From an uncultured Clostridia bacterium (GTDB taxonomy: Bacteria > Bacillota > Clostridia > Christensenellales > UBA1242), in assembly GCA_944383685.1 (NCBI GenBank), contig CALWQM010000015.1, forward strand, positions 57,570-121,569: a DNA stretch of 64,000 nucleotides, read 5' to 3'. Below the pieces are notes generated by a model. That model saw nothing but the letters and a program-made list of their open reading frames with translations, had not been told where the DNA came from and did not search any database. The translations under genes and the position numbers were made by a program. This document shows positions 5,996-63,466 of the stretch, piece by piece (position 1 is the stretch's first letter; every line of letters begins with the position of its first letter).

Positions 5996-6343
5996 ATGAG
6001 AATTAAAAGAGGTGTAAACGCAGTTAAAAAGCGTAGAAAAATCTTAAAGGCTGCAAAAGGATACTTTGGTGCAAAAAGTAAACTTTATAGAACTGCAAGA
6101 GAACAAGTTATGAAGTCTGGTCAATATGCTTATATTGGCAGAAAACAAAAGAAAAGAGATTTCCGTGCTCTTTGGATTACAAGAATCAATGCAGCTTGCA
6201 GACAAAACGATATTTCATATTCAAGATTTATTGCTGGTCTTAAAAAAGCAAATGTTTCTTTAAACAGAAAAGTTCTTGCAGATATTGCAGTAAGAGAACC
6301 TGAAACTTTCGCTGAACTTGTTGCAACAGCAAAGAAGGCTTAA
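5996..6343 (+). CDS. rplT: 50S ribosomal protein L20
   Basis: 115-aa [25 protein letters not shown]... sequence with an AGGAGG SD. Confidence 0.95.
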
Positions 6344-7065
6344 TGGAAAGGGCGAGCAAAAGTTTAATATCTAACCTTAAAAAGCAAAAACGAGATAAGT
6401 CTTTGCTTTTTTTGGATAATGTCAAAATAATTAAAGACGCAATCAAAAATTCATCAATCAAGGTTGAATGTGTTTTAACAAGCCTTGATGAACTTCCTTT
6501 TGTCACTGATGCAAAAACATATCGTGTTGATGAGAAAACCATTGAAATGCTTGCAGACACCAAAACACCACAGAAGGTATTATGCATTGCATACTATAAT
6601 CAACATGTTGTGGTTGTGCCAAAATCTAATTTTTTGGTTTTAGATTCCCTTCAAGACCCAGGAAATGTTGGCACACTGATAAGAACAGCAAAAGCATGCG
6701 GAATGGAAAGTGTGTTTTTGGTGGATAGTGTAAGTTTAACAAATTCAAAACTTATTCGCAGTTCTGTTGGTGCAGTTTTTAATGAAAATGTTTATTCTGT
6801 ATCTAAAAGTGAATTTATCCAAATGGTTAAAGAAAACAAATTACAACTTGTTAAGTGTGATATGAATGGAGAAAACATTTTTAAATATAAACCTAATGGG
6901 GTTGTGGGAGTTGTGATTGGAAACGAAGGGCAAGGTGTGAGTGATGAAATTGCTTCACTATGCCAAACATCCATTTCAATACCAATGAAAGAAGGCATTG
7001 AAAGTTTAAATGCTGGTGTAAGTGGTTCAATAATCATGTATCAAATTTCAAAGGATAATTTTTGA
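6343..7065 (+). CDS. TrmH/SpoU-family RNA 2'-O-methyltransferase (RlmB/YsgA-like)
   Basis: LQDPGNVGTLIRTA, GNEGQGVS and IPM..GIESLNAGVSGSI motifs. TAATG overlap with rplT; same position as ysgA in Bacillus. Confidence 0.8.
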   Translation: MERASKSLISNLKKQKRDKSLLFLDNVKIIKDAIKNSSIKVECVLTSLDELPFVTDAKTYRVDEKTIEMLADTKTPQKVLCIAYYNQHVVVVPKSNFLVLDSLQDPGNVGTLIRTAKACGMESVFLVDSVSLTNSKLIRSSVGAVFNENVYSVSKSEFIQMVKENKLQLVKCDMNGENIFKYKPNGVVGVVIGNEGQGVSDEIASLCQTSISIPMKEGIESLNAGVSGSIIMYQISKDNF

Positions 7066-8227: not shown

Positions 8228-11200
8228 ATGAAAAAGTTGATAATTTGTTTATGCACTTTAATATGTGTTTTTTCAGCTGTTATTTTTGGTGGTTTAAATA
8301 GTGAAGATAATGTTGAAGAAAATTATGAAGTATCAACTTTAAGCCTTCCAAATGTAGCAAATGATTTATTTGAAAATAGAAGATTGACAAGTTTGCGAGG
8401 TGAGTCAATTGAAGAAGGAGATGGAACTGAAAAAAATCCATATATAATTACAACACCAGGGCAAATACTTGATCTAGCAAGAGGAAATTATTATAAACTT
8501 GGTGCAGACTTAAATTTTGGTATGTATGAATATAGACCAGATACTTTTAGGGATATTAATTTTGATGGAAATGGTTATTCCATAACAGGAGTTTTTATAG
8601 GGAGTGCTAATAATAATATTGGCTTTTTTAGAGAGCTTGAAGATTCTGTTATAACCAATTTACATGTAACTGGTGTTATTAGAGGAAGTGGAATTATTGG
8701 TGGTATCGCTGGAATAATCAGTGGCACACAATTGATAAATTGTTCATTTAGTGGCTATATATATGGAGAAGAATATGTTGGAGGGCTTGTTGGACAAGTT
8801 AATGACCCCGCAAGAAATAATAGTGAAATAATTAATTGTGCAAATAAGGCAAATGTTTATGGAGAAGGTGATTACATAGGAGGACTTGTTGGTGATGTTA
8901 CTGGAAGCACTACTGCTGCGTATGAAGCATTAATTTCAAATAGTTATAACATGGGAATTATACAAGGTGGACGAGTAAACATTGGTGGACTTGTTGGCAA
9001 TGCAAATAATACTATCGTTGAAAATTGTTACAATATTGGAACTATAAATGCACCTTGGTACACTCGAGCAGATGGAGCAATTGGTGGTATTATTGGACTT
9101 GCATATGAATGTGAATTTAGAAATGTTTATAATTATGGAACATTAAGTGTTATTGCTGCCATAGAAGCAGTTGGTGGATTTGTTGGTGTTGCCAAACGAG
9201 ATAATGTTTTTGAAAATTGTGTTAATTTTGCCGAAGTTTTTTGTAAGAATGAAATTTCACAAAGTGGTTTTGTTGGAGAGCTAGGTGCAAATAATACTTT
9301 TACAAATTGTTATTTTGGTGGAAAAAGCACTGCACAGTCAGCAAATGCAAATATTTCTATAAGTGAAATTATACGATTTGATGGTGAAATTAGGTATGGT
9401 GATAGAGCATTTTTTGAAGATTTGGGACTTGATACTTTTGTGGTTGACAGTGCAAATATGGGCTTGCCATATATTGAAGAAGCATCTGGATTAATGCCAC
9501 TTAGAACAACAGACGAACGAGAAGGAACTTGGATAAATTACATTCGTGATAATAGTTTATCAATGTCTGAGCATCCAACAGGAACAGGCACACAAGATGA
9601 CCCTATACTTATTGAAACTGCTAGGCAGTTAGCATTAATTGCAGCTGAAATAAGAGATGGAAATGATGAAATTGCAAGTTCTTATTTCAAACAAATGGCA
9701 GATATTGACTTGTCAGGATATTATTGGGAGCCTATGGATTTTTCAGGTGTTTATGATGGCAATGGCTATTTTATAACGGGTGTTTATGCAACTAGCGGTG
9801 GAGTGTTTGGTCGAGTAACGCAACCGAGAAGTGGTGAAATTGAATTGCCTATTATTCAAAATGTAAATGTTATGGGCGCTGTTTACACTGGCGATGGTGG
9901 GGGTGTTGTTAGAACTATTGATAATAGCTTTATAAATAAATGCACATTTCAAGGGCAATTTTTGACACATGATAATGGGGTAGGTGGAATTGTTTCAAGG
10001 GCTGCTGATAGCGATGTGGCATATTGTGAAAATTATGGGTTAATTTATAGCACGGGTGTTTCAGCAGGCATTGCTGCAAGAGCAAATGGCCCAAATAAAA
10101 ATATATATGGTTGTGCAAATTATGGTAGTGTTCTTTCCGATGGTCATTCAACTGGTGGAATTGTAGGAGCAAGTGGTGATGTAACAATTGAAAATTCGTA
10201 TAATATGGGCTTAATTCAAGGATTAGATGGTGTTGGAGGAATTGTTGGGGATACAGATGAAAACACCATTTTAACAAATGTTTATAATGGTGGAGATATT
10301 AGGGGAACAGCTTATAGAGGTATGTTTAGAGGTAATATGCTTGGCGGTCTTGTTGGAAGTGCTATGCATGAGATTTTGATTGAAAATAGTTTTAATGTAG
10401 GCAGTGTTATTGGCATAAATGATTATGGAGCATTTATTGGCAGAGATGATGCTGACAGTTCAATTGAAAATTCATATTATGGTGGAGATAGCCCAATGCA
10501 AGGAACCAACCTTGATGAAATGGCAGATTGCTATTTTGAAGACTTAGAAAGTGCAGTAAGAGATAAAAGCTTTTTAACTGAAACACTTGGCTGGGATAGT
10601 CGACTTTGGCAAACTTCAAGAGATATAAATGATAGTTTACCATCTTTACGGTATTTAGAACATCCAGAATGTTTTTATGGGATAATATATATTACAGGTG
10701 TTGATGATTGTAATTTTGTCATTGACTATTCTCCAAAGACAATTGTTGATATTGGCGTTGTAAACACAAGATATGAACTTGAAAGTTATAACACTGAGCC
10801 TGATGGCAGTGGAACTGAATATACAATAGGACAAGAATACCCAACAGATACACCCGGTTTGCAAGATCCAGATCTTCCACTGCTCAGTGGAAGCAAGTTG
10901 TTTTTAATGTAACTTTAAACCATGGCAACGGAACTGCAAATTCAACTATATATGTTTATTATGGAAAAGGTTTTTATTCAAATTCATCTGCAACAACTGC
11001 AATCACAAGCATAAATTTGCCAACAGAGATAACAGGGCAACATTTTGCTGGTTATTACACAAAAACAGGAGGAGCAGGTTTACAAATTATTGATGCAAGC
11101 GGAAAAATTGTTGGAAGTAACACTTTCACAAATGCAAATATAACTTTATATGCATATTGGGTATATAACTCATATAGTGTTAAGTTTAATGGAAATGGTG

Positions 11201-12147
11201 CAACAAGTGGAAGTATGACAAATCAAAGTTTTACTTATGGAATTACACAAGCATTAAAACAAAATTCGTTTGTTAAAACTGGATTTGATTTTATGGGTTG
11301 GTCAACATCAAGTTCAGGTAAGGTTGAATTTGCAAATGGGCAAACTGTTTCAAATTTAACTGCAACAAATGGTGCCACTGTTAATTTATATGCCGTTTGG
11401 GAAGCAAGAAATAAAGCTAAGTATGATGAGGATGGTGGCTATTGGTATGTTGAAATGGGAATGTTTCCACAATCACTTGTAACTAATGCTCCAGTTTCAA
11501 CATCGTCAGCAAAATCAGGAAGAACTTATCGAATTGGAAATGAAACATTAATTGGTTATAATGGTACTGATGGTAAGGAGTATTGCCAATATAATGGAAA
11601 TTGGTATTTAGTTGAACCTGTTAAATGGCGTCTTGAAGGGAACTATTCAAATGGTTACGGAATTGAAAATGGAAGTGTTATGGCAATAACTGCTGTTGTT
11701 GTTCATGCAAGTGCTTATTCAACTGATGAAATAAATACGGAAAATGGTTATGTTGATTCAGCATTTAACAATGAAACTTTTTATTTTGACAGTCATTTAT
11801 ATGAATGGTCTTCTGGGGAAACTGATTATTTGAATGTCAGTATTAAAAAAGTTAATTATTTTACACCAGATGGAACAATTTTACAAGATTATAAATTACT
11901 AGATATTTATCCATCTTCATTTGAAGAAATTGTAAATATTTTTGGAGAAAACTATAATATGCAATTCAGTGATTTAGTTACTGCTATTATTGGGAATATC
12001 TTAAAATATTGGGTAAGAGATTTTGGAAGTAATGTAAACACAGCACAGTGCTTAACAAATATGGGAAATGTATTGCAAAATTGCATGCAAAATATTTTAG
12101 GTGTTCAATATACTATTAATATTACAGAATTTGGATGCGAGAATTAA
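8228..12147 (+). pseudogene. Large secreted GLUG-repeat / Listeria-Bacteroides-repeat surface protein, interrupted by a frameshift
   Basis: ORF 8228..10912 carries a signal peptide and two ~330-aa modules rich in GG[LIF]VG repeats. The adjacent frame is open from 10819 to 12147. The F.GW/DGSGT.Y/..AQW repeat runs across the break (TAQWKQVVFNVTLNHGNG in the new frame), so this was one gene of about 1300 codons. Confidence 0.6.
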
Positions 12148-12161
12148 CATATATTTTAAGT

Positions 12162-12190
12162 AAAACACGGTATTTCCGTGTTTTATTATT
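12162..12190 (+). terminator. Intrinsic terminator after the surface protein gene
   Basis: AAAACACGG / CCGTGTTTT stem, 5-nt loop, T-rich tail. Confidence 0.7.
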
Positions 12191-12273
12191 GATATTTTTA
12201 ATTAGGTTTTAATATTCTTATTTATAAGGTTCTTAATTATAAAATTTAAGCATATTATGATAAGGGGCATATT

Positions 12274-12906
12274 ATGTTAGATTTTATTGTTGATAATTTT
12301 TCAAGTTGCGTGTTTTTGGCCGTTATCATTGTTGCGCTAATTCCAACAATTGAAAGCAAGATTGCGATACCGCTTGGTTTGTCCAGTGCAATTTGGGGAG
12401 ATGCGACACTTTCACCATTTGTGACATTTATTTGTGCTTTTGTTGGAAGTATGATTCCATGTTTCCTTGTTATTTATATTGTTAGAAAACTTAAAGATAA
12501 GACCAGTGGCTTTGTTCAAGACAAATTTATTTCCAAAATTCAAAACAAATATAAAAATAGATTGGAAAAAATAGGGGCTAAAAGCAAAACTTTTTACAAA
12601 CTCACAATGCTTGCAATGTTTGTTGCTGTGCCTTTGCCTTTGACTGGGGTGTATAGCGGAAGTTTGATTGCAGGACTTACCAATTTAAAAATGTGGCAAT
12701 GTTTTATTGCTATAATGGTTGGAGAATTAATATCTTGCCTTGTTATGCTGCTTCTTTGCACAATATTTGAAAATTCAACTTTATATATATTGATTGCTTC
12801 TCTTATTCTTATTGCTGTGTTTATTATCTTTGACCTTGTTTTTATGTTTATTAAAAAGCATATAAAAAAGAAAGACAGAACATCAACAATTATGGAAGTA
12901 AAATAA
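12274..12906 (+). CDS. Membrane protein, putative small multidrug export (Sm_multidrug_ex/COG2426-like) family
   Basis: 210-aa polytopic ORF. IESKIAIPLGL and VPLPLTGVYSGSLIAGL resemble the family motifs from memory. Confidence 0.55.
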   Translation: MLDFIVDNFSSCVFLAVIIVALIPTIESKIAIPLGLSSAIWGDATLSPFVTFICAFVGSMIPCFLVIYIVRKLKDKTSGFVQDKFISKIQNKYKNRLEKIGAKSKTFYKLTMLAMFVAVPLPLTGVYSGSLIAGLTNLKMWQCFIAIMVGELISCLVMLLLCTIFENSTLYILIASLILIAVFIIFDLVFMFIKKHIKKKDRTSTIMEVK

Positions 12907-13096
12907 AAAAAGAAAAGAGATATAGATAGTTAAAAAACTAAAAACCTCTTTTCTCATATAGGTCATTAAGCAAAGTATGTTTAAGAAAGAAATTAAAATT
13001 AAAACAGATTGATAAAAAACAATCATAATAATTTATCTTAAACGGTCACTTAAATAACCTATTTATATAGTGTGCCGGTTTAAAAAAAATATGCAA

Positions 13097-14836
13097 TTAT
13101 TTTGCATATTTTTTATAAACAAATTTTGTTAAATAATAATTGATTGGTAAAATCACAAGTAATGCATAAATTGGAACTAAAATTGAGGTTAAATATTGAA
13201 CCATTGTTTCTGCTTGCATGCCACAACAAATGTTAATAACAAAAACGATAACACTTGCCAAAATGAAGACGGCCCAATTAGTTATTGCATTATATCTTTG
13301 TGTTGCCTTTCGACTTACTGTGCATTTATATTGTATTAATGAGATAATAACATAAATTAAAAACAATGCTGGAATGGTGTAAAATAAGAAATTCGACGAA
13401 GCCATTAAATGATTTGTTCCGCTAATTATTCCGTAAAAAATAGCACAGCCTACACCAACTAATCCGAACAAAATTACTGAGATAATAAGATTTAAAAGAT
13501 TTGTGTTATGAACTCTTTGAACATAAGTCCTTTTATATTCTTTAAATTCAATTCCGCGTTCATGATAATAACCCTTCAATGATTCAAAATCTGCAAAGGA
13601 GACAACAGGCTGAGCTTTTTGAGCATAGTAGGTTGCTTTCTGTTCAACATTAGGAGAACTTTGAATTTGCTTACTTGCAATTTCCTTTTCCTTCTTCTTT
13701 TCGTTGATTTTTGACATCATGTCTGTATAAGTTGGTTCCAAATTTGAATCTCTTATCGGTGCAGGCAAGTTATCATCCGAAACATTGATTTCAATATTTG
13801 GAGGAGTGATTTTTCTTTGATATGGAATATGTTCATCAGCAATTTTTGGCTCGGTAATTAAAACTGCGTCATCTTTTTCTTCTACAATTTGTTTTTTATC
13901 TTCAAAAATTGGTGTTGAAACCCTATTGGTTTGTATGAACTGCGCTTCATTTTGTTGAGGTTTAAGATAAATTCCATCATCTTTATTTACTGAATTTTCA
14001 GTTTCTTCTTTTTTATTAAACAAATTTGCATAAACACTTCTATCAAAATTGTTTTGCTTTGTTTGGAGTATGGACTCTTTTAAGCTTTGAATTTTAGATT
14101 TAAAATCTTCATCATTTGGCTTTTGTTCATAAACAACTGACATTTCAATTTGATTGTCTGAAAAGCTTTTTCTATTCCTATATTTTTTTAATTCGCTTGA
14201 AGTGTCATACAATTTTTTGTTTTGCTCAATTTGATAAGGGGTGAGGGTTTCATTTTCGTTTAAAAATTTTGCATCATCCTTTTTAGGTTCTTCCTTTTCA
14301 AAACTGAAAACATCCTTATTGGCACTTTCTTGTTTTTCAGGTTGTTCATAAGAAAAGAAATCAATTTGGTTATCTGCAACTTCTGGTGTATCTTCTTTTG
14401 GAACTGGTTTTTCTTCTTGTTTAGGTTGTTTTGCATAATCAAACAAATTTTTTTGTTCCAGAAAGATTGGTTTATGTTCAAAATCACTCTCACTTGTTTC
14501 AATGTTAGTTTCAAATTCCACTTCTTTGTTTTCATCAGCAGAGAAAGAAATATTTTTAAATTCCTTAGCAAGCAAATTTAAACTTTCCTTTCCTTCATCT
14601 GTGAGGGCATAATAATGGCGTTTTCCACCAAATTCACTTTCTCCCCAAAAGGAAGAAGAAACAAGGCCTTTTTTTTCTAGTCTTGTTAAGCACGAATAAA
14701 GAGTCGGCTTTTTAAGGATATAGCCGCCATTTGTTTTTTTAGCAATAAATTCAATAATTTCCAAACCATATTTTGAACCGTCTGCAAGCGAATCAAGGAT
14801 AAGATATTGGACTTGACCATTGGAATTAAATGCCAT
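13097..14836 (-). CDS. PadR-family winged-helix regulator fused to a long low-complexity linker and a C-terminal 4-TM domain
   Basis: ATG at 14836 follows an AGGAGG SD. The N-terminus YLILDSLADGSKYGLEIIEFI...LYSCLTRLEKKGLV...KRHYYALTDEG is PadR-like. About 340 aa are E/K/Q/N-rich, then come four hydrophobic helices. Confidence 0.7.
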   Translation of the reverse strand: MAFNSNGQVQYLILDSLADGSKYGLEIIEFIAKKTNGGYILKKPTLYSCLTRLEKKGLVSSSFWGESEFGGKRHYYALTDEGKESLNLLAKEFKNISFSADENKEVEFETNIETSESDFEHKPIFLEQKNLFDYAKQPKQEEKPVPKEDTPEVADNQIDFFSYEQPEKQESANKDVFSFEKEEPKKDDAKFLNENETLTPYQIEQNKKLYDTSSELKKYRNRKSFSDNQIEMSVVYEQKPNDEDFKSKIQSLKESILQTKQNNFDRSVYANLFNKKEETENSVNKDDGIYLKPQQNEAQFIQTNRVSTPIFEDKKQIVEEKDDAVLITEPKIADEHIPYQRKITPPNIEINVSDDNLPAPIRDSNLEPTYTDMMSKINEKKKEKEIASKQIQSSPNVEQKATYYAQKAQPVVSFADFESLKGYYHERGIEFKEYKRTYVQRVHNTNLLNLIISVILFGLVGVGCAIFYGIISGTNHLMASSNFLFYTIPALFLIYVIISLIQYKCTVSRKATQRYNAITNWAVFILASVIVFVINICCGMQAETMVQYLTSILVPIYALLVILPINYYLTKFVYKKYAK

Positions 14837-14904
14837 ATTTCCTCCTAAACCCTTTCTTATAATTAAATTATAAATCTTATAAATATATTTGTCAAACAAA
14901 ATTT

Positions 14905-14965
14905 CATAGTATTATGCAAAAAATTTTAATTGCATAACACCACAATATATAGTGTAATATGCCAT
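14905..14965. repeat. Palindromic intergenic repeat family, copy A
   Basis: ATAGTATTATGCA...TGCATAACACCACAATATATAGTGTAATATGCCAT. The 14-mer CACAATATATAGTG (14941..14954) is identical to 55366..55379. Confidence 0.6.
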
Positions 14966-17225: not shown

Positions 17226-18272
17226 ATGAAAACTTTATCATACTTTGAAAAAAGGGACTTAGTCAATATGGAAAAAATTGGAAGTTATCTCAGCGAACTT
17301 CCAGAGTATTGTTATGACTTTTTCACAGGTATTGAAATTACCACTTCAAGTTTGACACGTTTGAATTATGCAATGGATTTATCCATCTTTTTTGACTATA
17401 TTTCAAAGTTCATTTTAAAAAAGGACAAAAAAGAAATCACATTAAAAGATTTGGACACTCTTGAAGCGAGAGATATTGAAAGTTATTTGTCATATCTCAC
17501 CTTTTATAAAGTTGATGATAAAGCTTTTAAAAATACAGAAAATGGGAAGGCAAGAAAACTTGCAAGTGTGAGAAGTTTTTTTAAATATCTTTTCAACCAT
17601 GATTTAATAAGCAAAAATGTTGTCAGCAAAGTTCCAACTCCAAAACTTCACAACAAGGGTATTATTAGGTTGGAGGGGAATGAAATTGAGAAAATGCTTG
17701 ATGCAGTGAATGACCCAACAACATTCACACAAAGACAGAAAAATTACAACAAAAACACAAGAATACGTGATAATGCTATTGTCACACTTTTTCTTGGAAC
17801 GGGCATAAGAGTTAGCGAGCTTGTTGGACTTAATGTGGAAGATTTTGATTTTTCACAAAATGCCTTTAAAGTGACAAGAAAAGGTGGAAATCAAACAATA
17901 CTTTACTATCCAAATGAAGTTAAGTACGCAGTTGAAGAATGGCTTACAATTCGCAAAACACTTCCAATAAATGAAGATGAGCACGCATTATTCCTTTCTT
18001 TGCAAAACAGGCGCATTTGCACAAGGGCGGTTGAAAATCTTGTGAAAAAGTTTGCAAGGGAAAGCACGCCACTGAAAAATATTTCACCTCACAAACTTCG
18101 TTCAACCTTTGGCACAAATTTGTATAGGGAAACAAATGACATCTATATTGTTGCTGATGTTTTGGGGCATAAGGATGTTAACACAACCAAAAAACACTAT
18201 GCGGCAATAAGTGAAGATATGCGTAAAGGTGTTGCCAAAAAGGTGAAAATTGGCAACAGCAATTTTGATTGA
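17226..18272 (+). CDS. Tyrosine site-specific recombinase, Xer family (XerS-like architecture)
   Basis: 348 aa. Catalytic-region motifs are GIRVSELVGL, VTRKGGN, HKLRSTFGTNLY and LGHKDVNTTKKHY (R..H-R-H..Y). The N-terminal half (LPEYCYDFF...SSLTRLNYAMDLSIFFDYI) resembles streptococcal XerS from memory. Confidence 0.75.
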   Translation: MKTLSYFEKRDLVNMEKIGSYLSELPEYCYDFFTGIEITTSSLTRLNYAMDLSIFFDYISKFILKKDKKEITLKDLDTLEARDIESYLSYLTFYKVDDKAFKNTENGKARKLASVRSFFKYLFNHDLISKNVVSKVPTPKLHNKGIIRLEGNEIEKMLDAVNDPTTFTQRQKNYNKNTRIRDNAIVTLFLGTGIRVSELVGLNVEDFDFSQNAFKVTRKGGNQTILYYPNEVKYAVEEWLTIRKTLPINEDEHALFLSLQNRRICTRAVENLVKKFARESTPLKNISPHKLRSTFGTNLYRETNDIYIVADVLGHKDVNTTKKHYAAISEDMRKGVAKKVKIGNSNFD

Positions 18273-18289: not shown

Positions 18290-18354
18290 TGCATACTTGT
18301 TAAAATACCCAAATATAGTGTATTATGTTATGCATACCACACCACAATTTGTGT
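18290..18354. repeat. Palindromic intergenic repeat family, copy B
   Basis: TGCATACTTGT...AAATATAGTGTATTATGTTATGCATACCACACCACAATTTGTG, starting 18 nt after the recombinase stop. Confidence 0.55.
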
Positions 18355-32592: not shown

Positions 32593-32963
32593 ATTTCAAA
32601 TTTTTTGGGGTGGTAGTTTACTTAAAAATTTTCATACATAAAATTATTAATTATGTAATTTATACTGGCTGGTGGTATGGTTTAATTTTATATAATAAAT
32701 TTTGTTCTAAAATGCGTTCACATACACGGAATAATTAAACTTTTAAAATTTTCCTTGAATTTAACATTATTATACAAAGATGAAAATTTCATAGTAGTAT
32801 GCATAAATATACATAAATTTAGACTCAAATATTTTTTAAATTTAGTTAAATCTTGTTTTAAACTTACAGAAAGAATAAATAAAATGTTTATAAAAATTAT
32901 GTCAATCACATTAATAAAAAAGTTAGAAGAAAACATCAATAATATTTAATTATTATGAGCTAA

Positions 32964-33125
32964 GGTATTATGCGCATAATACCACAATATTTTGTTTAAA
33001 ATTATGTGATAATACACCATATTTTGAATATCTATTCGCAAAACCTGTCTTTTGCGAATAGATTGTAAACCACTTTTAATCATAATCACCCAATTTTTTA
33101 CATAAATAAGCCCACATTTTTTATT
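32964..33125. repeat. Repeat array flanking the candidate dif
   Basis: Perfect 20-bp palindrome GGTATTATGCGCATAATACC (32964..32983). Four same-orientation ~20-bp units, consensus roughly CATAATACCACAATATTTT: 32972..32993, 33006..33025, 33079..33099, 33100..33122. Confidence 0.5.
33030..33063. other. Candidate chromosome dimer resolution site (dif-like 14-6-14 perfect palindrome)
   Basis: ATCTATTCGCAAAA CCTGTC TTTTGCGAATAGAT. It is 530 and 330 nt from the nearest gene ends, has no flanking U-tract, and sits in the convergent strand-switch gap. Confidence 0.5.
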
Positions 33126-41258: not shown

Positions 41259-41270
41259 ACATACCTCTCA

Positions 41271-41328
41271 CTATATGTTGTGTAGTATTCATGCATACTA
41301 CAATATATATTGCGTCATAACACAATAA
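41271..41328. repeat. Palindromic intergenic repeat family, copy D
   Basis: CTATATGTTGTGTAGTATTCATGCATACTACAATATATATTGCGTCATAACACAATAA fills the ruvA-ruvB spacer. Confidence 0.5.
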
Positions 41329-42640: not shown

Positions 42641-45600
42641 TTACCAGATAAATTCATCTTGACAACTTGAACATTTTAATTCACCAGCATGGCAATGTTC
42701 ACCCAAACTTATGTCATTGTTACCTAGAAATTTGTCAGCATTTGTATAACATTTTGTTATAAATGATGTGTCATTTGAATTTATATTTCCAGCAAAACCG
42801 CCAACACTTAGGTCATCATCACTTGTAGAACTATCACTAGCATTATTAATTATACTAATATTACCTTTTGAATAACAAATTGTAATATTATATGAAGAAT
42901 CAGTATTTTCAATAACACCAGCAAATCCACCAAAATTCATCGGTGTTTCTGTATAAAGATTAGAAATTTCTCCCCCATTTCTTAATAGCAAAGCTTCGTT
43001 AACATTATCATCTTTTACATAAGTTCTTAAACTATCCGCTTCTATCACAAAAATTTGATTATTACTTTTATTATTAGTGTTAACAACAACACTGCAATTA
43101 TAATTTCCAACTCTTGTGAAATTAGAATTATTTGAATATCCAACAACTGCCCCAACATTAGCAAAACCTTCAACATTACCACTCATGATTGTTAAATTTT
43201 TTATGGTTGCATTTTCTGTGTAACCAAAAAGTCCAATGTTGTTTAAATTTGATTCGCTGATATTCAAATTATAAATTGAATAATATTGACCATCATAATA
43301 TCCCTTAAAAGGACTTTGCTCCGTTCCAATAGGAAGCATATTGTTTTGAAGTGTTGTTTTTTCGTTAACTAATGGGTCATCTGGGAAAACAATATCACAG
43401 GTTTGTTTAAATCTCTCTCCTTCAAAAGTGTTACCCATGATTGTTGTTTGATAAAGCATCCAATACAAATCGCTATAAGAATCTATTATATAGGTGTTTC
43501 CTTGTTTTTCAGGATTAATGATATCAAGATTTTCATCACTTAATGACTCTATTTCCATAGAAAGCATATAGTAAACATCAATATTAATTACATTTGACTC
43601 GGCATTATTGGTGATTACTTGAAAGTCAAAAGTTCCAGATTTAGATAGCTGTTCACCATTACAATAAATGCCATAATATGTCATAAATCTGTTAATACCA
43701 TCATGGTTAATACCATCATACACAATTTGATCTAAATAATTATAAAATTTTTGTATATCTAGATTGATTTTTGAATATGCTTTAACATTTTCAAACGTAT
43801 ACATTTTATAAAGATCTTTTGAAACTGCATTTTTTGAATTATATGTAGGTTCATTGCCAAGAATAGAAACATTATAAGAATTTTCTGAACCTTTAACAGT
43901 GTCAATATCTGCAATTCCCATCAAGGTAAATTTATTTTTAGCACTATCATAAGAATCAGCAAAGTAAAGGTTAAAGTTAATATCATAACTTTGTAAACTA
44001 TAATATGAATAGAAAAGCATTGAATTGTAATTGGTTGCATTACTTTGCATTACTTCGTCATTGCCGTTTACAAGGGCATCAGTATAGTAAGAATAAAGTT
44101 GATATTTATCAAAGTAACTTCCTGCATAACCGCTTGTTGAGAATGTATTTGCAAAATCTACAAAAGAATTTTCATCGTCTGCGGACTTTTCAGTTTCATT
44201 TGCGAAATAACCAAGATTTGGAGTTTTTGTTACACCACTTAAAACTCCTTTTTTTATTATTTCTTCGCCTGAATCAAGAGTTTCTTTCCAAGTACTAAAA
44301 TATAAATCTTTTCCCTGCCCGTCTTTTGGTTCTGCATTTGCTGGATTATACCCACTTCCTGCAAATGGATTGGTTTTGTCAAAATTAAATTCATAGAAGA
44401 ATGTAAGTTTAAATTCAAAACCTTCAACAGAACTTGTGTCAAGTTTAATATATTTATTATCTTTGGATTTATCTTGGTCAGTAATTTGCCCTGCCTTAAT
44501 AGTTCCATCATCTTCAATTGCAAGATAAAGGTCGTCTCTCTTTGTTGAATCATTAGAATTTATTGGAATTATTGTGTAAGTGGTAATATCGCCAACACTA
44601 TTTGAAATAGAATTAAAATTATGCTCGCCATTTTTATCTGTTTCATTCCAAATATCTAAATTTCCGCCACTGCTTCCAATATGATAAACACCTTCTGCAT
44701 CTTCATAAACATCTGCAAAATAGTAATAATAAGACCTATATTCTGCCCCTCTATTTAATGTAGGATTTACACTAAATTCTTCAAAATGGATATTAATAGC
44801 TAAACCATCATTTACATTTAAATTTCCATTTTTTGTTCCTAATTCTTCAAATTGGTATAAGTCCAAGGTCAAGTAAATCATACCTTCACTTGGGTTTGGT
44901 TGCTTATCACTCTCAAAAGTGATAAAACCATTTTGAGTTGGAATAAAATCATCACTTGAAGATATTTTAAAGTTATCAAATGTAAAACCAGCTGTTCCAC
45001 CCCAAGCGAAAGATTTGTTATAATCATTCGTTTCATTTGACCCCTTTCTATCAAGAGTTACATTGCCAACATAATGAGAATAATATCCATCAAAGAAATT
45101 ACTCCCACTATTTTTTAATTGTGCTCCAATTTTGAGCTGAGCACTTTGATTTCCATTTGCACTGAATGAAGTAGTATTCGCCGTGTTACCACTTGTTCCG
45201 TATTCTATATTCCTAAAAACAATATCTTCGCCATGACTTTGATAAGCCCGTCCACTATAACCATAATTTACAGTAATAGTCCCCAATCCTGGATTGCCCT
45301 CAGTTCCTTCTGTAAAATTATTATTTTCGTCGCTTTCTAACTTATAGTTAATTTTAATACCACTATACTGATAGCGAACAAAAACTGCGGTAAGTGTTGT
45401 GCCAGATGTTATCTTATTTGTATTAAATGTGTATGTAATTACTCCACCATTATTTTTAAGATCCTCTGCTTTAATTGACGATGTGCTTACTTCATAATTG
45501 AGGTTATCAATAGATACAATGGATGCATCTGCAGAACTGAAAAATTTATCACCAATAAATAAACCAAAAACTTCATAATTTTCATTTGGTTTTAACGAAA

Positions 45601-47662
45601 CAGAAATATTGTATTTTCCAGCAAGCCCACTAATTGTGATACTTTCTTTATTGTTGTTTTCATTGTCTATAAATTCGTTGACATTAGAAGCTTCCGCAGA
45701 AACTGCACTGATATAACCACCTTCTGTGCCAATCTCAGTTTCAAAAGAAGAAGGTTCAACATAAAATTGGTTTGCATATTTAACATTAACAGTGTAACTT
45801 ATTGCATTTCTATCAAAAACCGCAACAATGTTTTGAATACTAGAATTATAGGTTCCACCATCCTCAGTATATAAATAAATATTATCACTTAGAGGATCGC
45901 CACTATAATTACCTCTACTATTATATCTATACCATCCTTTAAATGAATATGAACTATTAACCGTCCTTGAACACAAACTCATATTAGTATTTGTTGTTTT
46001 AAAGAAATATAAGGTTACAGAACTGTTGGTGGTAACAGAACTTGCTTTTGCTCCATTTCTAAAATATACTGACCCAGCTTCTCCACTCATTGAACTTGTT
46101 GTCCCTGAATCGGCAGTTTGGTCATAAACATAAGCATTTCCGCCATCTTTATCTATATTCTTGGTTTGAATGCCAACATTAATATCCTCAAGCCAATAGG
46201 AAAGAACTAATTTCCCTTCAATAACATCTTCATCTGTCCCAAAATCAACATAGGACCATGTCCTACTTTTATCAGTTGAGCTATAATCAAAGTTACTTAA
46301 ATATCTAGTATCAATATCTATATTACTTAATGACGATATTTTGCTATTATTATTTACTGTTCCAGCCTTAGTTGTTCCATAAAGGTTGTTTCCAGTGTAA
46401 TAACAATTATTGATATTTCCTCTATTCCAGCCAACTATTGAACCAACTCTTTCAGTGCCACCACCTTTAATTTTGCCAACATTAATACAATAAGTAACAT
46501 TTTGGTCACCATTATCGGATCCACCATAACCAGACTGTCCAACAATACCACCAGTAACAGTGTCACCAGTAGACCTTCCCCCAACATCACCATAGTTAAT
46601 GCAATGGTCAACATCCGCCCCCTCTTCAAGAGAGCCTACAATACCACCAGTAAATTTAACTGAGCTGCTTATTTTTCCATAATTAATACAATTCGATATT
46701 TGACTATCTCGTTTGGCAAAACCAACAAATCCACCAACTTTTTCGGAAACATTTTCTCCTGAACGAGTTATATTGCCCAAATTCATGCAGTTATCTATAT
46801 CAACATTTCCACCATCTGTAAAGCCAACAAAACCACCCATCCATGTTTCCCAGCCAAAATTAGAAGAATCACATTTGATGTTAATTTTATTAACACAATT
46901 TTCAATTTTAACAGTGCCCCCAGTCACCCTGGAAACAAATGCTCCATAAACACCTTCATAAGATGATGAAATATTGCCGTCTAACATCAAATTTTTTATA
47001 GTGCAACCATCAGAATGCCCAATTAAACCAATAAATCTTCCAGATTGAAGTCCTAAAAATCCTGTTCCATAATGATAACGTCCTTCATTATCTCTATTTA
47101 CATCAATTGTCAACCCAGAAATAATATGACCTCTACCATCAATTATTCCTTTAAAATTTCTTATAGGCATCCAATAATGAGCAGAAAGGTCAATATTTTC
47201 TTGAATATAGATTGTCCTACCCTCATATGTATTACCCTTTTCAATTGAATTATAAGCAATGCCTGCTAAGTCTTGGGCATTATAAATATAATATCCAACA
47301 TTTGCATCATAATTTCCACTATCTGTCCAATAGCCTGATGCTTGACTTGAAACTTCATCGTTATCGTCATCAGTTTCACCATTACCTACGTCACCATCTG
47401 GCGAGCTTGGACTTTGAGTATTATCCTCATTTTTTTCATCATCACTTGGTGAAGAAGTTGAACCATTTTCACCATTATCAACATTTTCGCTGTCGTCTAA
47501 ACTTTCATTGTCACTGTCAATGGTATCTTCAACAGAGGTTTGAGGTAAAAGAGCAGCATAATTATATATATTAATTGAACACAAACAAAGTATTGCTGTG
47601 AATAAAACACATGCAAATGACATTAAGAATTTTTGATTAAACTTCTTATTTTTCATTTTCAT
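42641..47662 (-). CDS. Giant secreted/surface protein (1673 aa) with GLUG-like repeat modules
   Basis: Signal peptide, acidic D/E/S/N-rich spacer, and a GG[FI]VG-repeat module preceded by Y.NAQDLAGIA...ENIDLS..W.PI..F.G..DG.GH.ISGL. This architecture matches the 8228 gene. It continues with a long N/S/T/Y-rich region holding F.GW-type repeats and a second GLUG-like module near the C-terminus. Confidence 0.8.
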   Translation of the reverse strand: MKMKNKKFNQKFLMSFACVLFTAILCLCSINIYNYAALLPQTSVEDTIDSDNESLDDSENVDNGENGSTSSPSDDEKNEDNTQSPSSPDGDVGNGETDDDNDEVSSQASGYWTDSGNYDANVGYYIYNAQDLAGIAYNSIEKGNTYEGRTIYIQENIDLSAHYWMPIRNFKGIIDGRGHIISGLTIDVNRDNEGRYHYGTGFLGLQSGRFIGLIGHSDGCTIKNLMLDGNISSSYEGVYGAFVSRVTGGTVKIENCVNKINIKCDSSNFGWETWMGGFVGFTDGGNVDIDNCMNLGNITRSGENVSEKVGGFVGFAKRDSQISNCINYGKISSSVKFTGGIVGSLEEGADVDHCINYGDVGGRSTGDTVTGGIVGQSGYGGSDNGDQNVTYCINVGKIKGGGTERVGSIVGWNRGNINNCYYTGNNLYGTTKAGTVNNNSKISSLSNIDIDTRYLSNFDYSSTDKSRTWSYVDFGTDEDVIEGKLVLSYWLEDINVGIQTKNIDKDGGNAYVYDQTADSGTTSSMSGEAGSVYFRNGAKASSVTTNSSVTLYFFKTTNTNMSLCSRTVNSSYSFKGWYRYNSRGNYSGDPLSDNIYLYTEDGGTYNSSIQNIVAVFDRNAISYTVNVKYANQFYVEPSSFETEIGTEGGYISAVSAEASNVNEFIDNENNNKESITISGLAGKYNISVSLKPNENYEVFGLFIGDKFFSSADASIVSIDNLNYEVSTSSIKAEDLKNNGGVITYTFNTNKITSGTTLTAVFVRYQYSGIKINYKLESDENNNFTEGTEGNPGLGTITVNYGYSGRAYQSHGEDIVFRNIEYGTSGNTANTTSFSANGNQSAQLKIGAQLKNSGSNFFDGYYSHYVGNVTLDRKGSNETNDYNKSFAWGGTAGFTFDNFKISSSDDFIPTQNGFITFESDKQPNPSEGMIYLTLDLYQFEELGTKNGNLNVNDGLAINIHFEEFSVNPTLNRGAEYRSYYYYFADVYEDAEGVYHIGSSGGNLDIWNETDKNGEHNFNSISNSVGDITTYTIIPINSNDSTKRDDLYLAIEDDGTIKAGQITDQDKSKDNKYIKLDTSSVEGFEFKLTFFYEFNFDKTNPFAGSGYNPANAEPKDGQGKDLYFSTWKETLDSGEEIIKKGVLSGVTKTPNLGYFANETEKSADDENSFVDFANTFSTSGYAGSYFDKYQLYSYYTDALVNGNDEVMQSNATNYNSMLFYSYYSLQSYDINFNLYFADSYDSAKNKFTLMGIADIDTVKGSENSYNVSILGNEPTYNSKNAVSKDLYKMYTFENVKAYSKINLDIQKFYNYLDQIVYDGINHDGINRFMTYYGIYCNGEQLSKSGTFDFQVITNNAESNVINIDVYYMLSMEIESLSDENLDIINPEKQGNTYIIDSYSDLYWMLYQTTIMGNTFEGERFKQTCDIVFPDDPLVNEKTTLQNNMLPIGTEQSPFKGYYDGQYYSIYNLNISESNLNNIGLFGYTENATIKNLTIMSGNVEGFANVGAVVGYSNNSNFTRVGNYNCSVVVNTNNKSNNQIFVIEADSLRTYVKDDNVNEALLLRNGGEISNLYTETPMNFGGFAGVIENTDSSYNITICYSKGNISIINNASDSSTSDDDLSVGGFAGNINSNDTSFITKCYTNADKFLGNNDISLGEHCHAGELKCSSCQDEFIW

Positions 47663-49612: not shown

Positions 49613-50065
49613 TTAATTTAAAATATTATTTAAAGTAACAACAGCCTCACTTGAAAGAGCAGTTGAAGGAAACACCAAAAGCACAGTGTCATCACCATAA
49701 GTTGTACCCATAAGGTCAATGAGGTTTAACTTATCAATAAAAGATGCAACACTTCCGCCCATGCCTTTAATGGTTTTGATAACAGCAAGGTTTAAAGCAT
49801 TTTTCACAGAAATAACCGATTCTTTAAAAATGGTTATGTATTTACTTGAAACAGCCTGTTGCTCAGTGCCCAAAATGGCATACTTATATTTGCCAGTTGA
49901 GGACAAAATTTTTGTAAGCCCAAGCTCTTTAATATCACGAGAAATTGTTGCTTGCGTGATATCAAAATTGGCATTTTTAAGCTCTTTTGCAAGCTCATCC
50001 TGCGTTTCAATCTCTTTAATTGAGATAAGTTCAAGTATTTTTGATTGTCTTGCACTTCTTGCCAT
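49613..50065 (-). CDS. argR: Arginine repressor
   Basis: 150 aa with TQATISRDIKELGL wHTH and a C-terminal GTTYGDDTVLLV oligomerisation/arginine-binding region. Upstream of recN, as in Bacillus ahrC-recN. Confidence 0.9.
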   Translation of the reverse strand: MARSARQSKILELISIKEIETQDELAKELKNANFDITQATISRDIKELGLTKILSSTGKYKYAILGTEQQAVSSKYITIFKESVISVKNALNLAVIKTIKGMGGSVASFIDKLNLIDLMGTTYGDDTVLLVFPSTALSSEAVVTLNNILN

Positions 50066-50117
50066 AACAACACTCCTTAAAGCCTAAACGCCCCTAAAAT
50101 ACGCACTTGTGGGCCTT

Positions 50118-50135
50118 TATGCATAATTATGAATT
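50118..50135. promoter_or_regulatory. ARG box 1 (in argR 5' UTR)
   Basis: TATGCATAATTATGAATT compared with the consensus TNTGAATWWWWATTCANW: 4 mismatches at the 16 defined positions. Confidence 0.45.
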
Positions 50136-50160
50136 TATAAAAATTCATTGATTTTTCATT

Positions 50161-50189
50161 ATTATACAATAAAATTAATAAATATGCAA
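50161..50189 (-). promoter_or_regulatory. Promoter of argR-recN
   Basis: On the - strand: TTGCAT (50189..50184), 17-nt spacer, TATAAT (50166..50161). Confidence 0.55.
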
Positions 50190-50196
50190 GTGAATT

Positions 50197-50214
50197 TATG
50201 CATATTTATTCATT
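50197..50214. promoter_or_regulatory. ARG box 2 (just upstream of the argR -35)
   Basis: TATGCATATTTATTCATT compared with TNTGAATWWWWATTCANW: one mismatch at the 16 defined positions. Confidence 0.5.
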
Positions 50215-50556
50215 AATTTTTTATAAATATTTTAATGATTGAAAGATTATAAATTATGAAAAGAATAAAAATAACCAAATATACAAAAGTAGCACGTGGT
50301 AAATACTAAAACTACGCTTAAAACAGAGTGTGATAATCTCATAAATTTGATAATCAAAAGAGAACTTATAATAAAAAAATTAAATTAGAATATATAATTT
50401 AAAAAACTTGAAAGGTGTAAACTGCCCCCTCCTTACTCAAAAGATGCAAAAATGCATTTTAACAGAAAAGATTTATAATGCTTGCTTTTAATATAAAAAC
50501 ACTTATAACCAAAATTTACGATGACATCTCGTAGATTTTTTATTTGTCTTTTAATG

Positions 50557-55267: not shown

Positions 55268-55357
55268 AATTTTTTCCTAACCTTTTAAATCATATTTTTT
55301 CAACAATCTTTTACTATTTCTATAATTTTTTGATTACCATCAATTATAATTCTTATA

Positions 55358-55405
55358 TCATACTACACAATATATAGTGTATTATGCATTGCATATCACC
55401 ACATA
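55358..55405. repeat. Palindromic intergenic repeat family, copy C
   Basis: CATACTACACAATATATAGTGTATTATGCATTGCATATCACCACATATT abuts the pheS stop inside the pheS-pheT spacer. Confidence 0.6.
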
Positions 55406-56425
55406 TTAACGCATTTGTTTCAAAAATCTTAAATCGTTTCTATAAAGATATTTAATGTTTGGTATTTTGTTTGTAACCATAACACTTCTATCTATGCCTG
55501 GGCCAAACGCAAAGCCGGAATATTTTTTGCTGTCAATTCCAGACATTTCCAAAACTTTTGGATTAACAACCCCAGCACCAAACACTTCACTGAACCCTGA
55601 ACCCTTGCAAAGCGAGCAACCTTTACCACCACACATTTGGCAAGTTGCATCAATTTCAATAGATGGTTCTGTGAATGGGAAATATGATGGTCTAACTCTC
55701 ATTTTCACATCTTCGCCAAACAATTTTTTAAGAATGACATCAATCATTTTCATCAAATCTTTAAGCCCAATATTTTCGTCCACAACAAGTGCTTCAAATT
55801 GGTTGAAAATTGGAGAGTGAGAACTGTCATCATCATTTCTATAAACCCTGCCAGGACAAACAATCTTGAATGGTGGTTTCATTTTTTCCATTGCGTGAAC
55901 TTGCATGTTTGAAGTTTGTGTTCTTAAAACTATGTTGTCAGTGATATATAAAGAGTCTTGCATATCTCTTGCTGGATGGTTTTTAGGGACATTCAAAGCC
56001 TCAAAGTTATAGTAATCTGTGTCAATTTCAGGTCCTTGAATAACAGTGAAACCCATTGCCACGCAGATATCCATAAACTTATTATTAAATTTTGTGAGAG
56101 GATGCAACGCACCCTTTTTAACACCAACACCTGGCATGGTGATGTCAACTTTTTCTTTTTCCATTTCAATTTCAAGTTGTCTTTCTTCAAGAGCTGCAAG
56201 CTTATCACTTAAAGCTTTTTCAAGCTTTTCACGAACAACATTTGCAAGCATTCCAACATTTTTCCTTTCTTCTGCTGGAATTTCTTTCATGTTTCTTAAA
56301 ATTGCAGTAAGTTCACCTTGCTTACCCAAAAACCTAACCCTAACATCATCAAGTGCTTTAAGGTCGACACATTTTTCAATTTGTTCTAAACCATTTTTTA
56401 AGATTAAATCAAGTTTTTCTTTCAT
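55406..56425 (-). CDS. pheS: Phenylalanyl-tRNA synthetase alpha subunit
   Basis: ATG at 56425 follows an AAGGAGAGAGG SD. HPARDMQDS, FRNDDDSSHSP-like motif 2 and GFAFGPGIDR motif 3. The longer track ORF runs into the T-box terminator. Confidence 0.95.
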   Translation of the reverse strand: MKEKLDLILKNGLEQIEKCVDLKALDDVRVRFLGKQGELTAILRNMKEIPAEERKNVGMLANVVREKLEKALSDKLAALEERQLEIEMEKEKVDITMPGVGVKKGALHPLTKFNNKFMDICVAMGFTVIQGPEIDTDYYNFEALNVPKNHPARDMQDSLYITDNIVLRTQTSNMQVHAMEKMKPPFKIVCPGRVYRNDDDSSHSPIFNQFEALVVDENIGLKDLMKMIDVILKKLFGEDVKMRVRPSYFPFTEPSIEIDATCQMCGGKGCSLCKGSGFSEVFGAGVVNPKVLEMSGIDSKKYSGFAFGPGIDRSVMVTNKIPNIKYLYRNDLRFLKQMR

Positions 56426-56429
56426 ACCT

Positions 56430-56698
56430 CTCTCCTTAAAAAAATAAAATCGCCCTAAAATATTAGGACGATTAAAATAAACCGTGGTACCACCTAACTT
56501 CATGCTTTAAACAAGCACCTTAATTAAAGTAATTACGCCTACTTTGCGACAAACCCTACGCAAAATTTGTTTAACCAAATTTCTTCAAGTCTGCAACTAG
56601 AAAGTGAATTCATCACACCATTTCTACCCCTTTTCAGCAACCGAGGCTCTCTGTAAGAAATTAAATATGATTACTGGTCTTTCATCATCGTTTTTATA
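56430..56698 (-). promoter_or_regulatory. T-box leader (Phe specifier) of pheS
   Basis: On the - strand: AGAGAG box, candidate specifier GAA-UUC-A (UUC at + coordinates 56606..56608), conserved T-box AAGUUAGGUGGUACCACGGU (56481..56500), then the terminator. Confidence 0.85.
56441..56473 (-). terminator. T-box terminator hairpin
   Basis: AAUCGUCCUAA / UUAGGGCGAUU stem (one G-U pair), followed by UUUAUUUUUUU, directly before the pheS SD. Confidence 0.7.
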
Positions 56699-62696: not shown

Positions 62697-62723
62697 ATAA
62701 CCGCAAAACGCGGTTATCTTTTT
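62697..62723. terminator. Bidirectional terminator
   Basis: ATAACCGC / GCGGTTAT stem, 5-nt loop, A-run upstream and T-run downstream. Sits between the convergent HTH and holin-like genes. Confidence 0.75.
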
Positions 62724-63129
62724 ACTTTTCACCAATATCATCTTTTATTTTATCACTTTCTTCACTTAAATTTTCTTCATTTGCATTTATGTTTGTGTTT
62801 TCACTTACCTTGTTTTCATTGTTTTCTAAACAAACATTGTCAACATTTTCACTTACCTTATTTTCATCATCCCCCACATTTTCGCTTGATTCTTCTGTTT
62901 GATCTGTTACGTCATTGTTGTTGCCATTTTCCTCTTTTGAGCCATCATCTTTTGTGACAAGCCCAAACACCACTAAAAGCCCAGCAACCGACATCACACA
63001 ACTTTCAACAATTTCATTTTCAATTTCAAAGCCAAAAATTTTTCCAAGGCAGTTCAAAAAAACAATTAAAGCACCAGAAAAGGACAGCCAGAAACTGTAA
63101 TGTTTCATTCTTTCAAATAGATTCTTCAT
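62722..63129 (-). CDS. Putative holin-like membrane protein with acidic C-terminal tail
   Basis: 135 aa with two TM segments and a D/E/N-rich tail. Two closely spaced Met starts (M1, M8). Overlaps the bhlA-like gene by 17 nt. Confidence 0.4.
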   Translation of the reverse strand: MKNLFERMKHYSFWLSFSGALIVFLNCLGKIFGFEIENEIVESCVMSVAGLLVVFGLVTKDDGSKEENGNNNDVTDQTEESSENVGDDENKVSENVDNVCLENNENKVSENTNINANEENLSEESDKIKDDIGEK

Positions 63130-63346: not shown

Positions 63347-63466
63347 GATTTTTCTCCAATTTAACATCCTCTTTTAAACTTAAAATTTTATCGACCATGA
63401 TATTCTCCCCTTTTAAGTAAAAAAGTTTTTTTGTGTAAAAATTTATATAATTTCTGCAAATCAACT

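Follow-up and report, generated by a model that had tools for sequence, protein, structure and literature searches.

We find that the 64,000-nucleotide stretch of DNA analyzed here (the window) carries a family of palindromes whose repeating unit is 30 bp long and whose 16-bp core, judging from its sequence, is the already known NrdR box; what is new is the 30-bp unit with its conserved flanks, together with the number of the sites and their location. The window is AT-rich (∼32% GC) and comes from a spore-forming member of the Clostridia known from metagenomes only, whose RuvA protein is found in identical form on contigs of many gut assemblies. NrdR is a zinc-ribbon/ATP-cone repressor that senses the dATP/ATP ratio and has been described as specific for ribonucleotide reductase (RNR), with one to three operators per genome. 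We tentatively interpret the palindromes as operators for an NrdR-type tetramer that would be used outside RNR promoters, and we place the probability of this interpretation a little short of one half. An earlier, sequence-only reading of this DNA had presented the element as undescribed, which is right in part only, the identity of the core as an NrdR box having been missed.

The basic unit has the form head-box-head, GCATAAT-ACACWATATATWGTGT-ATTATGC. Its box, ACACWATATATWGTGT, is itself a 16-bp palindrome and corresponds to the tail-to-tail junction of two half-sites with the consensus TGCATAAYAC(C)ACWATAT, which is common to six loci, and the head is the outer 7 to 9 bp of each half-site, GCATAAT or, on the opposite arm, ATTATGC. 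The space between adjoining units is a head-to-head junction, in which the two heads lie 0, 2, 3, or 13 to 14 bp apart. Measured from box start to box start, distances are 31 bp at locus E, 32 bp at loci C and D, 33 bp at locus B, and 43 bp at locus A, with linkers of 15 bp (E), 16 bp (C and D), 17 bp (B), and 27 bp (A). Relatives show an enrichment of partner boxes at +31 and +33, and individual loci have them at 32 and 43; in the usual partner, a good half-box stands beside the head and the other half is T-rich and degenerate. About half of the units in relatives are without a recognizable partner box.

Five loci had been reported, and each contains the described half-site in alternating orientation; the count, however, was one short, as a sixth locus lies at 32783 to 32806. 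Below, fractions after a box give how many of the six key NrdR positions (C4, A6, A8, T9, T11, and G13) it retains. Locus A comprises an outer half-unit (14897..14917), made of a degenerate half-box and a head (CAAAATTTCATAGTATTATGC), and a full unit (14932..14962) with head GCATAACA, box CCACAATATATAGTGT (14940-14955, all six positions present), and head AATATGC; the spacing of 43 bp with its 27-bp linker is measured from the outer half-unit to this box, and on the minus strand the half-unit immediately precedes the TTGACA −35 hexamer of a PadR-like gene. Locus B (18306..18354) starts 34 nt past the stop codon of a XerS-like recombinase gene and consists of box TACCCAAATATAGTGT (6/6), a 17-bp linker composed of two heads (ATTATGTTATGCATACC), and box ACACCACAATTTGTGT (5/6), with an extra head, TGCATACTT, at 18290-18298. 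The new locus F (32783..32806) is a half-unit, AAAATTTCATAGTAGTATGCATAA, situated in an 890-bp noncoding gap at the GC-skew switch, and it has a 21-mer, TGCATAMTACTATGAAATTTT, in common with the left arm of locus A. Locus C (32964..33029) opens with an orphan head, GGTATTATGC, that abuts head GCATAATA in a 20-bp perfect palindrome and continues with two 6/6 boxes, CCACAATATTTTGTTT (32982-32997) and ACACCATATTTTGAAT (33014-33029), separated by a 16-bp linker. This third locus had been drawn as 32964..33125, and it holds up to ∼33029; positions 33030-33125 belong to an unrelated hairpin. The strong hairpin in question, ATCTATTCGCAAAA...TTTTGCGAATAGAT at 33027-33062, lies in the 890-bp gap and has no relation to the palindrome family. 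Locus D (41268..41324) fills the 71-bp gap between ruvA and ruvB with box TCACTATATGTTGTGT, a 16-bp linker (AGTATTCATGCATACT), box ACAATATATATTGCGT, and head CATAACACA. Finally, locus E (55357..55411), in the pheS/pheT gap, has head ATCATACT, a perfect box (ACACAATATATAGTGT, 55365-55380), a 15-bp linker (ATTATGCATTGCATA), and a second box (TCACCACATATTAACG, 5/6). Upstream of pheS, a T-box leader (56461-56697, minus strand, 116 bits) was the sole match in an Rfam scan of the window, which returned nothing at the palindrome loci; the pheST operon therefore has conventional 5′ control besides the palindromes between pheS and pheT. A search of the window for tRNAs found none.

These sites lie far above chance. 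Allowing two mismatches or fewer, the core ACACWATATATWGTGT has 4 matches in the window against 0.07 expected, and the 19-mer of the sequence-only reading, ATGCATAAYACCACAATAT, has 2 matches at three mismatches or fewer against 0.09 expected. The 9-mer GCATANNAC occurs 13 times in the 64 kb, 10 of them in the five reported loci and an 11th in the sixth, and position weight matrix matches of at least 12.9 bits fall in family loci throughout the window, with the exception of one within a coding sequence at 6577. The latter is a possible coding-embedded member (6577..6597, in the open reading frame 6343-7065), a head-to-head pair, GTATTATGCATTGCATACTAT, followed at 6598 by a 6/6 box-like 16-mer; the pair is kept in the relative L021, and L028 provides a second coding-embedded example. 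The claim that all copies are intergenic is thus essentially right but needs three qualifications: the second pheS/pheT box overlaps the pheS stop codon, the first ruvA/ruvB box, which begins 10 nt before the ruvB start codon, covers the probable ribosome-binding site, and the pair at 6577-6597 is coding. Likewise, the exact 14-mer CACAATATATAGTG, previously attributed to loci A and C, is in reality common to the first and fifth loci (14941 and 55366).

How closely does the core follow the NrdR operator? We compared it with the NrdR box literature (Rodionov and Gelfand 2005; Rozman Grinberg et al. 2022, 2025, 2026). An NrdR site is a pair of 16-bp, partially palindromic boxes in which C4, A6, A8, T9, T11, and G13 are conserved, placed 15 to 16 bp (14 to 17 accepted) or 26 to 27 bp apart; NrdR needs both boxes, its linker is constrained by length and not by sequence, and NrdRs bind heterologous boxes (PMC13584703). 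In the window, the boxes at 14940, 18306, 32982, 33014, 41268, and 55365 hold all six key positions, and those at 18339, 41300, and 55396 hold five. The perfect box ACACAATATATAGTGT at 55365 differs from the synthetic box ACACAATATATAGTGG, which two distant NrdRs bind at 41 to 45 nM, solely at the nonconserved position 16, and its reverse complement is E. coli nrdEF box 1 from C4 to T16. The six conserved positions and this match to boxes bound in vitro count for the NrdR interpretation, as do linkers of 15, 16, 16, 17, and 27 bp against the published 15 to 16 or 26 to 27 bp. Further support comes from the degenerate half-boxes of locus B: in the outer half-box, compared across three species, C4, A6, and A8 are kept and neighboring positions drift, a pattern that in this comparison is the information pattern of NrdR, beyond the consensus of the family itself. 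The family also resembles NrdR operators in the AT step at the dyad of its 16-bp partial palindrome and in the often weaker partner box. The published regular expression for NrdR box pairs accepts loci B and C (C at box distance 16), although it is too loose for so AT-rich a window, where it finds 27 pairs against 17 expected.

Operators of this type also appear to occur away from RNR genes elsewhere. With an idealized double unit as the query, BLAST retrieved canonical NrdR-box pairs in Streptococcus phages (CHPC663 and Javan74) and in SPbeta-like Bacillus phages, with unrelated 16-bp linkers and in early or lysogeny-switch regions. None of these pairs (L071, 2501-2555; L072, 2501-2565; L070, 2501-2546) lies under an annotated nrd gene, which implies that NrdR-type operators exist outside RNR promoters in Firmicute elements and suggests that temperate phages may read the dNTP status of the host through NrdR. 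By this comparison, conserved heads are a peculiarity of the Clostridia lineage studied here. In Pseudomonas aeruginosa, topA is under NrdR control via one box, and both this case and the phage pairs count as precedents outside RNR for our interpretation. Published genome surveys of NrdR were confined to the 500 nt upstream of RNR operons.

Several observations nevertheless count against NrdR, and we hold the interpretation at its tentative level because the conserved heads, the single boxes, the off-promoter sites, and the apparent clustering near the terminus do not fit it. (i) Searches of the window and of ∼580 kb of related sequence detected neither an RNR gene nor nrdR, and the family, with at least six sites in 64 kb compared to the one to three operators per genome described for NrdR, adjoins pheT, ruvB, spoIVB, tig, and other genes instead of RNR promoters. 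(ii) Family linkers consist of two conserved heads, ATTATGC-N(0-3 or 13-14)-GCATAAT, so that the 7-bp flanks and hence the linker sequence are conserved, whereas NrdR linkers are reported to be unconserved. (iii) About half of the units in relatives are single, whereas NrdR is reported to need two boxes. (iv) The second box of locus E lacks G13 and that of locus D lacks C4, and single changes at conserved positions such as these can abolish NrdR binding. (v) Sites are found inside operons, between convergent genes, and even in coding sequence, where no promoter is expected. (vi) An NrdR model does not predict the apparent clustering near the terminus.

Conservation across genomes bears both on this interpretation and on the primary one offered by the sequence-only reading, a REP- or BOX-like element. 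An exact 20-mer, CAATATATAKTGTADTATGC, scanned across 185,579 species-representative genomes, gave 38 stretches, about 31 of them in 20 metagenome-assembled genomes (MAGs) of uncultured Clostridia or Candidatus Caccovivens, with 1 to 4 per genome; a metagenome collection gave 11 stretches, mostly on the same contigs, and the metagenome and viral scans together added almost nothing new. In their DNA, flanking genes of the related MAGs share just 70 to 80% identity with the window, and the sites sit in the same gene gaps across ∼20 related uncultured Clostridia species, which counts for recognition by an NrdR-type protein. The pheS/pheT element directly follows the pheS stop codon in 7 related MAGs and is nearly invariant in alignment, with the proviso that 20 of its bases were fixed by the search pattern, while the remainder of the gap varies from ∼12 to ∼130 nt and cannot be aligned. 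In the ruvA/ruvB gap, L021 has two boxes as in the window, and locus D is almost invariant in 10 other assemblies of the window's species. Orthologous units lie upstream of spoIVB or ygjP in L014, L066, and L068 (compare locus A), and the site after the Xer-like gene (locus B) has orthologues in L014 and L066. Every orthologous gap examined was occupied, and rearrangement breakpoints relative to L021 and L068 did not coincide with family sites. The sites are under selection and form a small, regulon-like set as opposed to a proliferating repeat.

An extragenic palindrome of the REP, BOX, or BIME kind, which a transposase or recombination would disperse and whose effect would depend on DNA or RNA hairpins, would share with the family its short, imperfect, intergenic palindromes in alternating orientation, their frequent position just past stop codons or between convergent genes, and the presence of some copies in lineage-specific inserted DNA (L045). 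We consider this origin very unlikely. Copy number is low, at most four exact 20-mers per related genome, which is orders of magnitude below that of REP/BIME in E. coli or BOX/RUP in pneumococcus; predicted hairpins are weak (−4.2 to −7.7 kcal/mol, z scores of −0.4 to −1.9); the arms do not covary, with only 2 of 11 units complementary at variable arm positions; and, in contrast to those repeats, the positions are orthologous across species, with near-perfect conservation over genus-level divergence. Two head-to-head copies lie within conserved coding sequence, no empty sites or target duplications were found, and the annotated genes of the window include no RAYT or IS200-type transposase. A hairpin or cruciform role was rejected on the weak energies and the lack of covariation. 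Taken together, the low copy number, weak folds, independently varying arms, and conserved gaps favor sequence-specific recognition by a protein over structure or mobility, and the independence of the arms and the weak folds count for the NrdR interpretation on the same grounds.

The second suggestion of the sequence-only reading, a protein-binding family enriched near the terminus by analogy with known terminus systems, fares better. Cumulative GC skew is maximal at 32 to 34 kb, and gene orientation converges at the same place; because these two features coincide, the replication terminus is located at ∼33 kb, with the skew switch itself in the 890-bp noncoding gap. Relative to the switch, the six loci are at −18, −15, 0, 0, +8, and +22 kb, and none of the loci falls in the window's outer 15 kb and 8.6 kb or in ∼7 kb and ∼10 kb of sequence adjoining its two edges. 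In CAKNPS, a single 373-kb contig carries all four exact 20-mers; its skew switch, placed by tile skews between 32 and 152 kb, puts the sites, as located by synteny, at roughly −115, −105, +22, and +111 kb. Both 20-mer matches of CALVYQ are on one contig, as are both of CALVZE. The region syntenic with the window holds 11 of the 31 matches, or ∼5 of 16 distinct positions, an enrichment estimate that is biased toward orthologues, since the pattern was built from the window's own sites, and that uses no MAG sizes. These distributions suggest that copies are concentrated in a terminus-proximal domain; protein binding is supported by the sequence evidence, and the terminus enrichment is suggestive only.

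Could the palindromes then mark the terminus domain for a DNA-binding protein other than NrdR, as matS does for MatP or as the XerD-bound sites (XDS) do? A few tens of intergenic palindromes may in that case recruit a protein that organizes or tethers this part of the chromosome or clears SMC from it, and a XerS-like recombinase encoded beside locus B may be the binder. We regard this as the main rival, possible but less probable than the NrdR interpretation. It would account for six loci within ±22 kb of the skew switch and none farther out in the window, for the rarity of exact 20-mers genome-wide (31 in 20 MAGs) and their clustering on single contigs, for the share of matches in the region syntenic with the window, and for sites in every type of gap irrespective of promoters. 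To our knowledge, MatP is not known in Firmicutes. The matS consensus is GTGACRNYGTCAC; the family resembles the enterobacterial matS sites in being a few tens of short palindromes that are promoter independent, without polarity, and apparently concentrated around the terminus, but it differs from matS in sequence and in having a 30-bp unit paired at helical-turn spacing, and its restriction to the domain is suggestive only.

Precedents for the terminus-mark alternative, as described in citing papers, are the graded action of matS and the XDS, non-recombining sites to which XerD binds at the terminus of B. subtilis (Karaboja et al. 2021, as cited). The family is like XDS in that several sites lie near the terminus, that one family copy has a tyrosine recombinase gene beside it, and that its unit lends itself to a reading as two arms flanking an AT-rich center; it differs in that it is unlike known dif, that its half-site runs to the dyad center, and that one relative has lost the neighboring position of site and recombinase gene. 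The unit indeed permits an 11-8-11 layout resembling tyrosine-recombinase sites, yet conservation runs through its center, unlike in recombinase arms, and its core matches the NrdR operator at every informative position. A single XerS-like tyrosine recombinase gene (17226-18272, plus strand) is found at 15 kb from the skew switch; among NCBIfam models XerS fits it best, with 183 bits and thus below the cutoff, and the gene is 76 to 87% identical across the lineage. In XerS/difSL modules, site and recombinase gene are linked; here, the gene abuts locus B in the window, L014, and L066, whereas in L068/L069 the xer gene has no adjacent site. There (9200-13450), it is inverted relative to spoIVB-ygjP and lies between the spoIIIA operon and spoIVB beside the large SRP RNA (RF01854), which points to a local rearrangement around the recombinase gene. 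As a binder, the XerS-like recombinase was rejected on this loss of adjacency in L068. Neither a canonical Firmicute dif nor a XerD arm was found in the window; the dif of this organism is therefore probably noncanonical, an absence that would favor terminus marks, whereas the family bears no likeness to the known motifs of matS, Firmicute dif, or difSL. Against terminus marks also stand the bias of the enrichment estimate, with its pattern derived from the window's own sites, and the CAKNPS sites, which extend to at least ±115 kb around the inferred terminus.

Ter/RTP of B. subtilis offers a third comparison, with composite sites of ∼30 bp around the terminus that combine a strong and a weak subsite. 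In the window, the stronger box is the terminus-proximal one at loci A, B, D, and E, that is, at all four flanking loci; the family differs from Ter in its symmetric core, its unrelated sequence, and its inconsistent orientation with respect to GC skew in relatives. There, orientation is mixed (∼5 against 4 to 5 distinct positions; not significant), in keeping with the earlier remark that the copies show no obvious polarity.

Codirectional, divergent, and convergent gaps are occupied roughly as expected for any intergenic DNA; relative to start codons, the nearest site overlaps the ribosome-binding site (ruvB) and the farthest lies ∼210 nt away. Genes adjoining sites include pheT, ruvB, fabG, ftsY, and those for RNase H, an IU-nucleoside hydrolase, a nifS-like protein, and a Rho-like protein, and sporulation genes are strikingly frequent. 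Specifically, spoIVB stands beside sites in the window, L014, L066, and L068, spoIIAA in L020, L035, and L039, sigK in L022 and L046-L048, spoVAC/yunB in L027, L034, and L042, and spoIIIAC/AD in L068, so that ∼6 of ∼19 distinct positions adjoin sporulation genes. The sites might accordingly serve a sporulation-stage regulator, as operators or as promoter elements, their heads mimicking elements of forespore σ factors, with GCATA as the −35 and CATAnTA as the −10; the lineage forms spores, and in Clostridioides difficile nrdR lies in a σE-controlled operon. We nevertheless judge this distinctly unlikely. Head spacing, checked by hand, never gives a valid −35/−10 pair, sites lie 50 to 210 nt upstream of starts or in convergent or intraoperon gaps, the best-conserved sites adjoin pheT and ruvB, and no sporulation factor is known to have a motif that fits. 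Moreover, sporulation genes may simply be common in this region, with the spoIIIA operon directly to the left of the window.

Candidate elements and binders of other kinds were tried and set aside. The heads do contain GCATA and CATAnTA, but no pair at the spacing that forespore σ elements require. A σ70 promoter across the unit (TTGCAT-18-TATTAT) suits part of the copies but fails where one head is missing, as at pheT in L026. A promoter scan of the terminus gap found sites no more numerous than in shuffled sequence, and a clear TTGACA-17-TATAAT promoter abuts a site only at the PadR-like gene. The known motifs of ArgR, PadR (ATGT-N8-ACAT), Fur, CRP/FNR, CopY/BlaI, and HutC/GntR, DnaA boxes, and parS do not fit the family. 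The PadR-like neighbor was itself considered as a binder and rejected, its adjacency to site A being found in L068 and not in L014, L066, L012, or L033, which have an unrelated Rho-like gene there. Its gene (13097-14836, minus strand) encodes 579 aa, with a PadR-family winged-helix domain, a long low-complexity linker, and a C-terminal multipass membrane domain, and the arrangement with the upstream half-unit is kept in L068/L069.

Returning to the NrdR interpretation, the binder would be a dimer of dimers with NrdR specificity, whose two zinc-ribbon dimers sit on the same face of the helix; three helical turns (31 to 33 bp) or four (43 bp) are the spacings that an NrdR tetramer needs. NrdR itself may be this binder, given that 77% of bacterial genomes encode it and that it binds heterologous boxes. 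When replication slows or finishes, a rise in dATP would cause the tetramer to bind and to kink each box at the AT step in its center, making it a local repressor or transcriptional roadblock for the gene just downstream, which would be pheT, ruvB, the ygjP-spoIVB cluster, or the PadR-like gene in the window and spoIIAA, sigK, or yunB in relatives. Alternatively, the bound tetramer might merely mark positions. With the 7-bp flanks GCATAAT, the recognition site could have been extended in this lineage specifically, or the flanks could be the site of a second protein.

NrdR binding and a function as terminus marks are not mutually exclusive. In a combined scheme, which we think unlikely, NrdR or a close derivative acting on the extended 30-bp operator at a dozen or so terminus-proximal positions (spoIIAA, sigK, spoIVB, spoIIIA, ruvB, and pheT among them) would couple the end of replication to sporulation: the state of finished replication and high dATP would be passed on to the handling of chromosome ends and to sporulation entry, so that the set of sites would report replication completion to sporulation and repair genes. 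Such a system would be a functional counterpart of the DnaA/Sda checkpoint of Bacillus. If NrdR binds these sites, it would be a wider regulator responding to nucleotide status, and a dozen conserved NrdR-type operators away from RNR genes would change the RNR-specific picture of this repressor. Should another protein be the binder, the sites would represent a candidate system of terminus-domain sites, of which none is known in Firmicutes other than Bacillus. In either case, the sites are short and well defined, and NrdR proteins that already exist allow a direct in vitro test.

We also made some observations on neighboring features. The Rho-like protein that is encoded beside family sites in several relatives (∼390 aa; L012, 5753-6937; L014, 1007-2251; L033, 5091-6260; L066, 7101-8273) is without a homologue in the window; its N terminus resembles the Rho N-terminal domain, and it carries an IFVQD..T motif and has no Pfam or NCBIfam match. 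Upstream of argR (49613-50065, followed by recN), ARG-box-like palindromes, TATGCATAATTATGAATTTATAAAAATTCAT and AATTTATGCATATTTATTCAT, occupy 50100-50215; they have the word TGCATAA in common with the family heads and differ in architecture. A 40-nt inverted repeat, 93% complementary, has its copies on opposite sides of the terminus (9164-9203 and 46705-46744), inside two large genes for putative surface proteins (8228-10912, with GLUG motifs, and 42641-47662, with no Pfam match). Beside polA, a prophage remnant with genes for a portal protein, the holin BhlA, and unannotated structural proteins begins at the right edge of the window (62700-64000) and is also seen in L063-L065.
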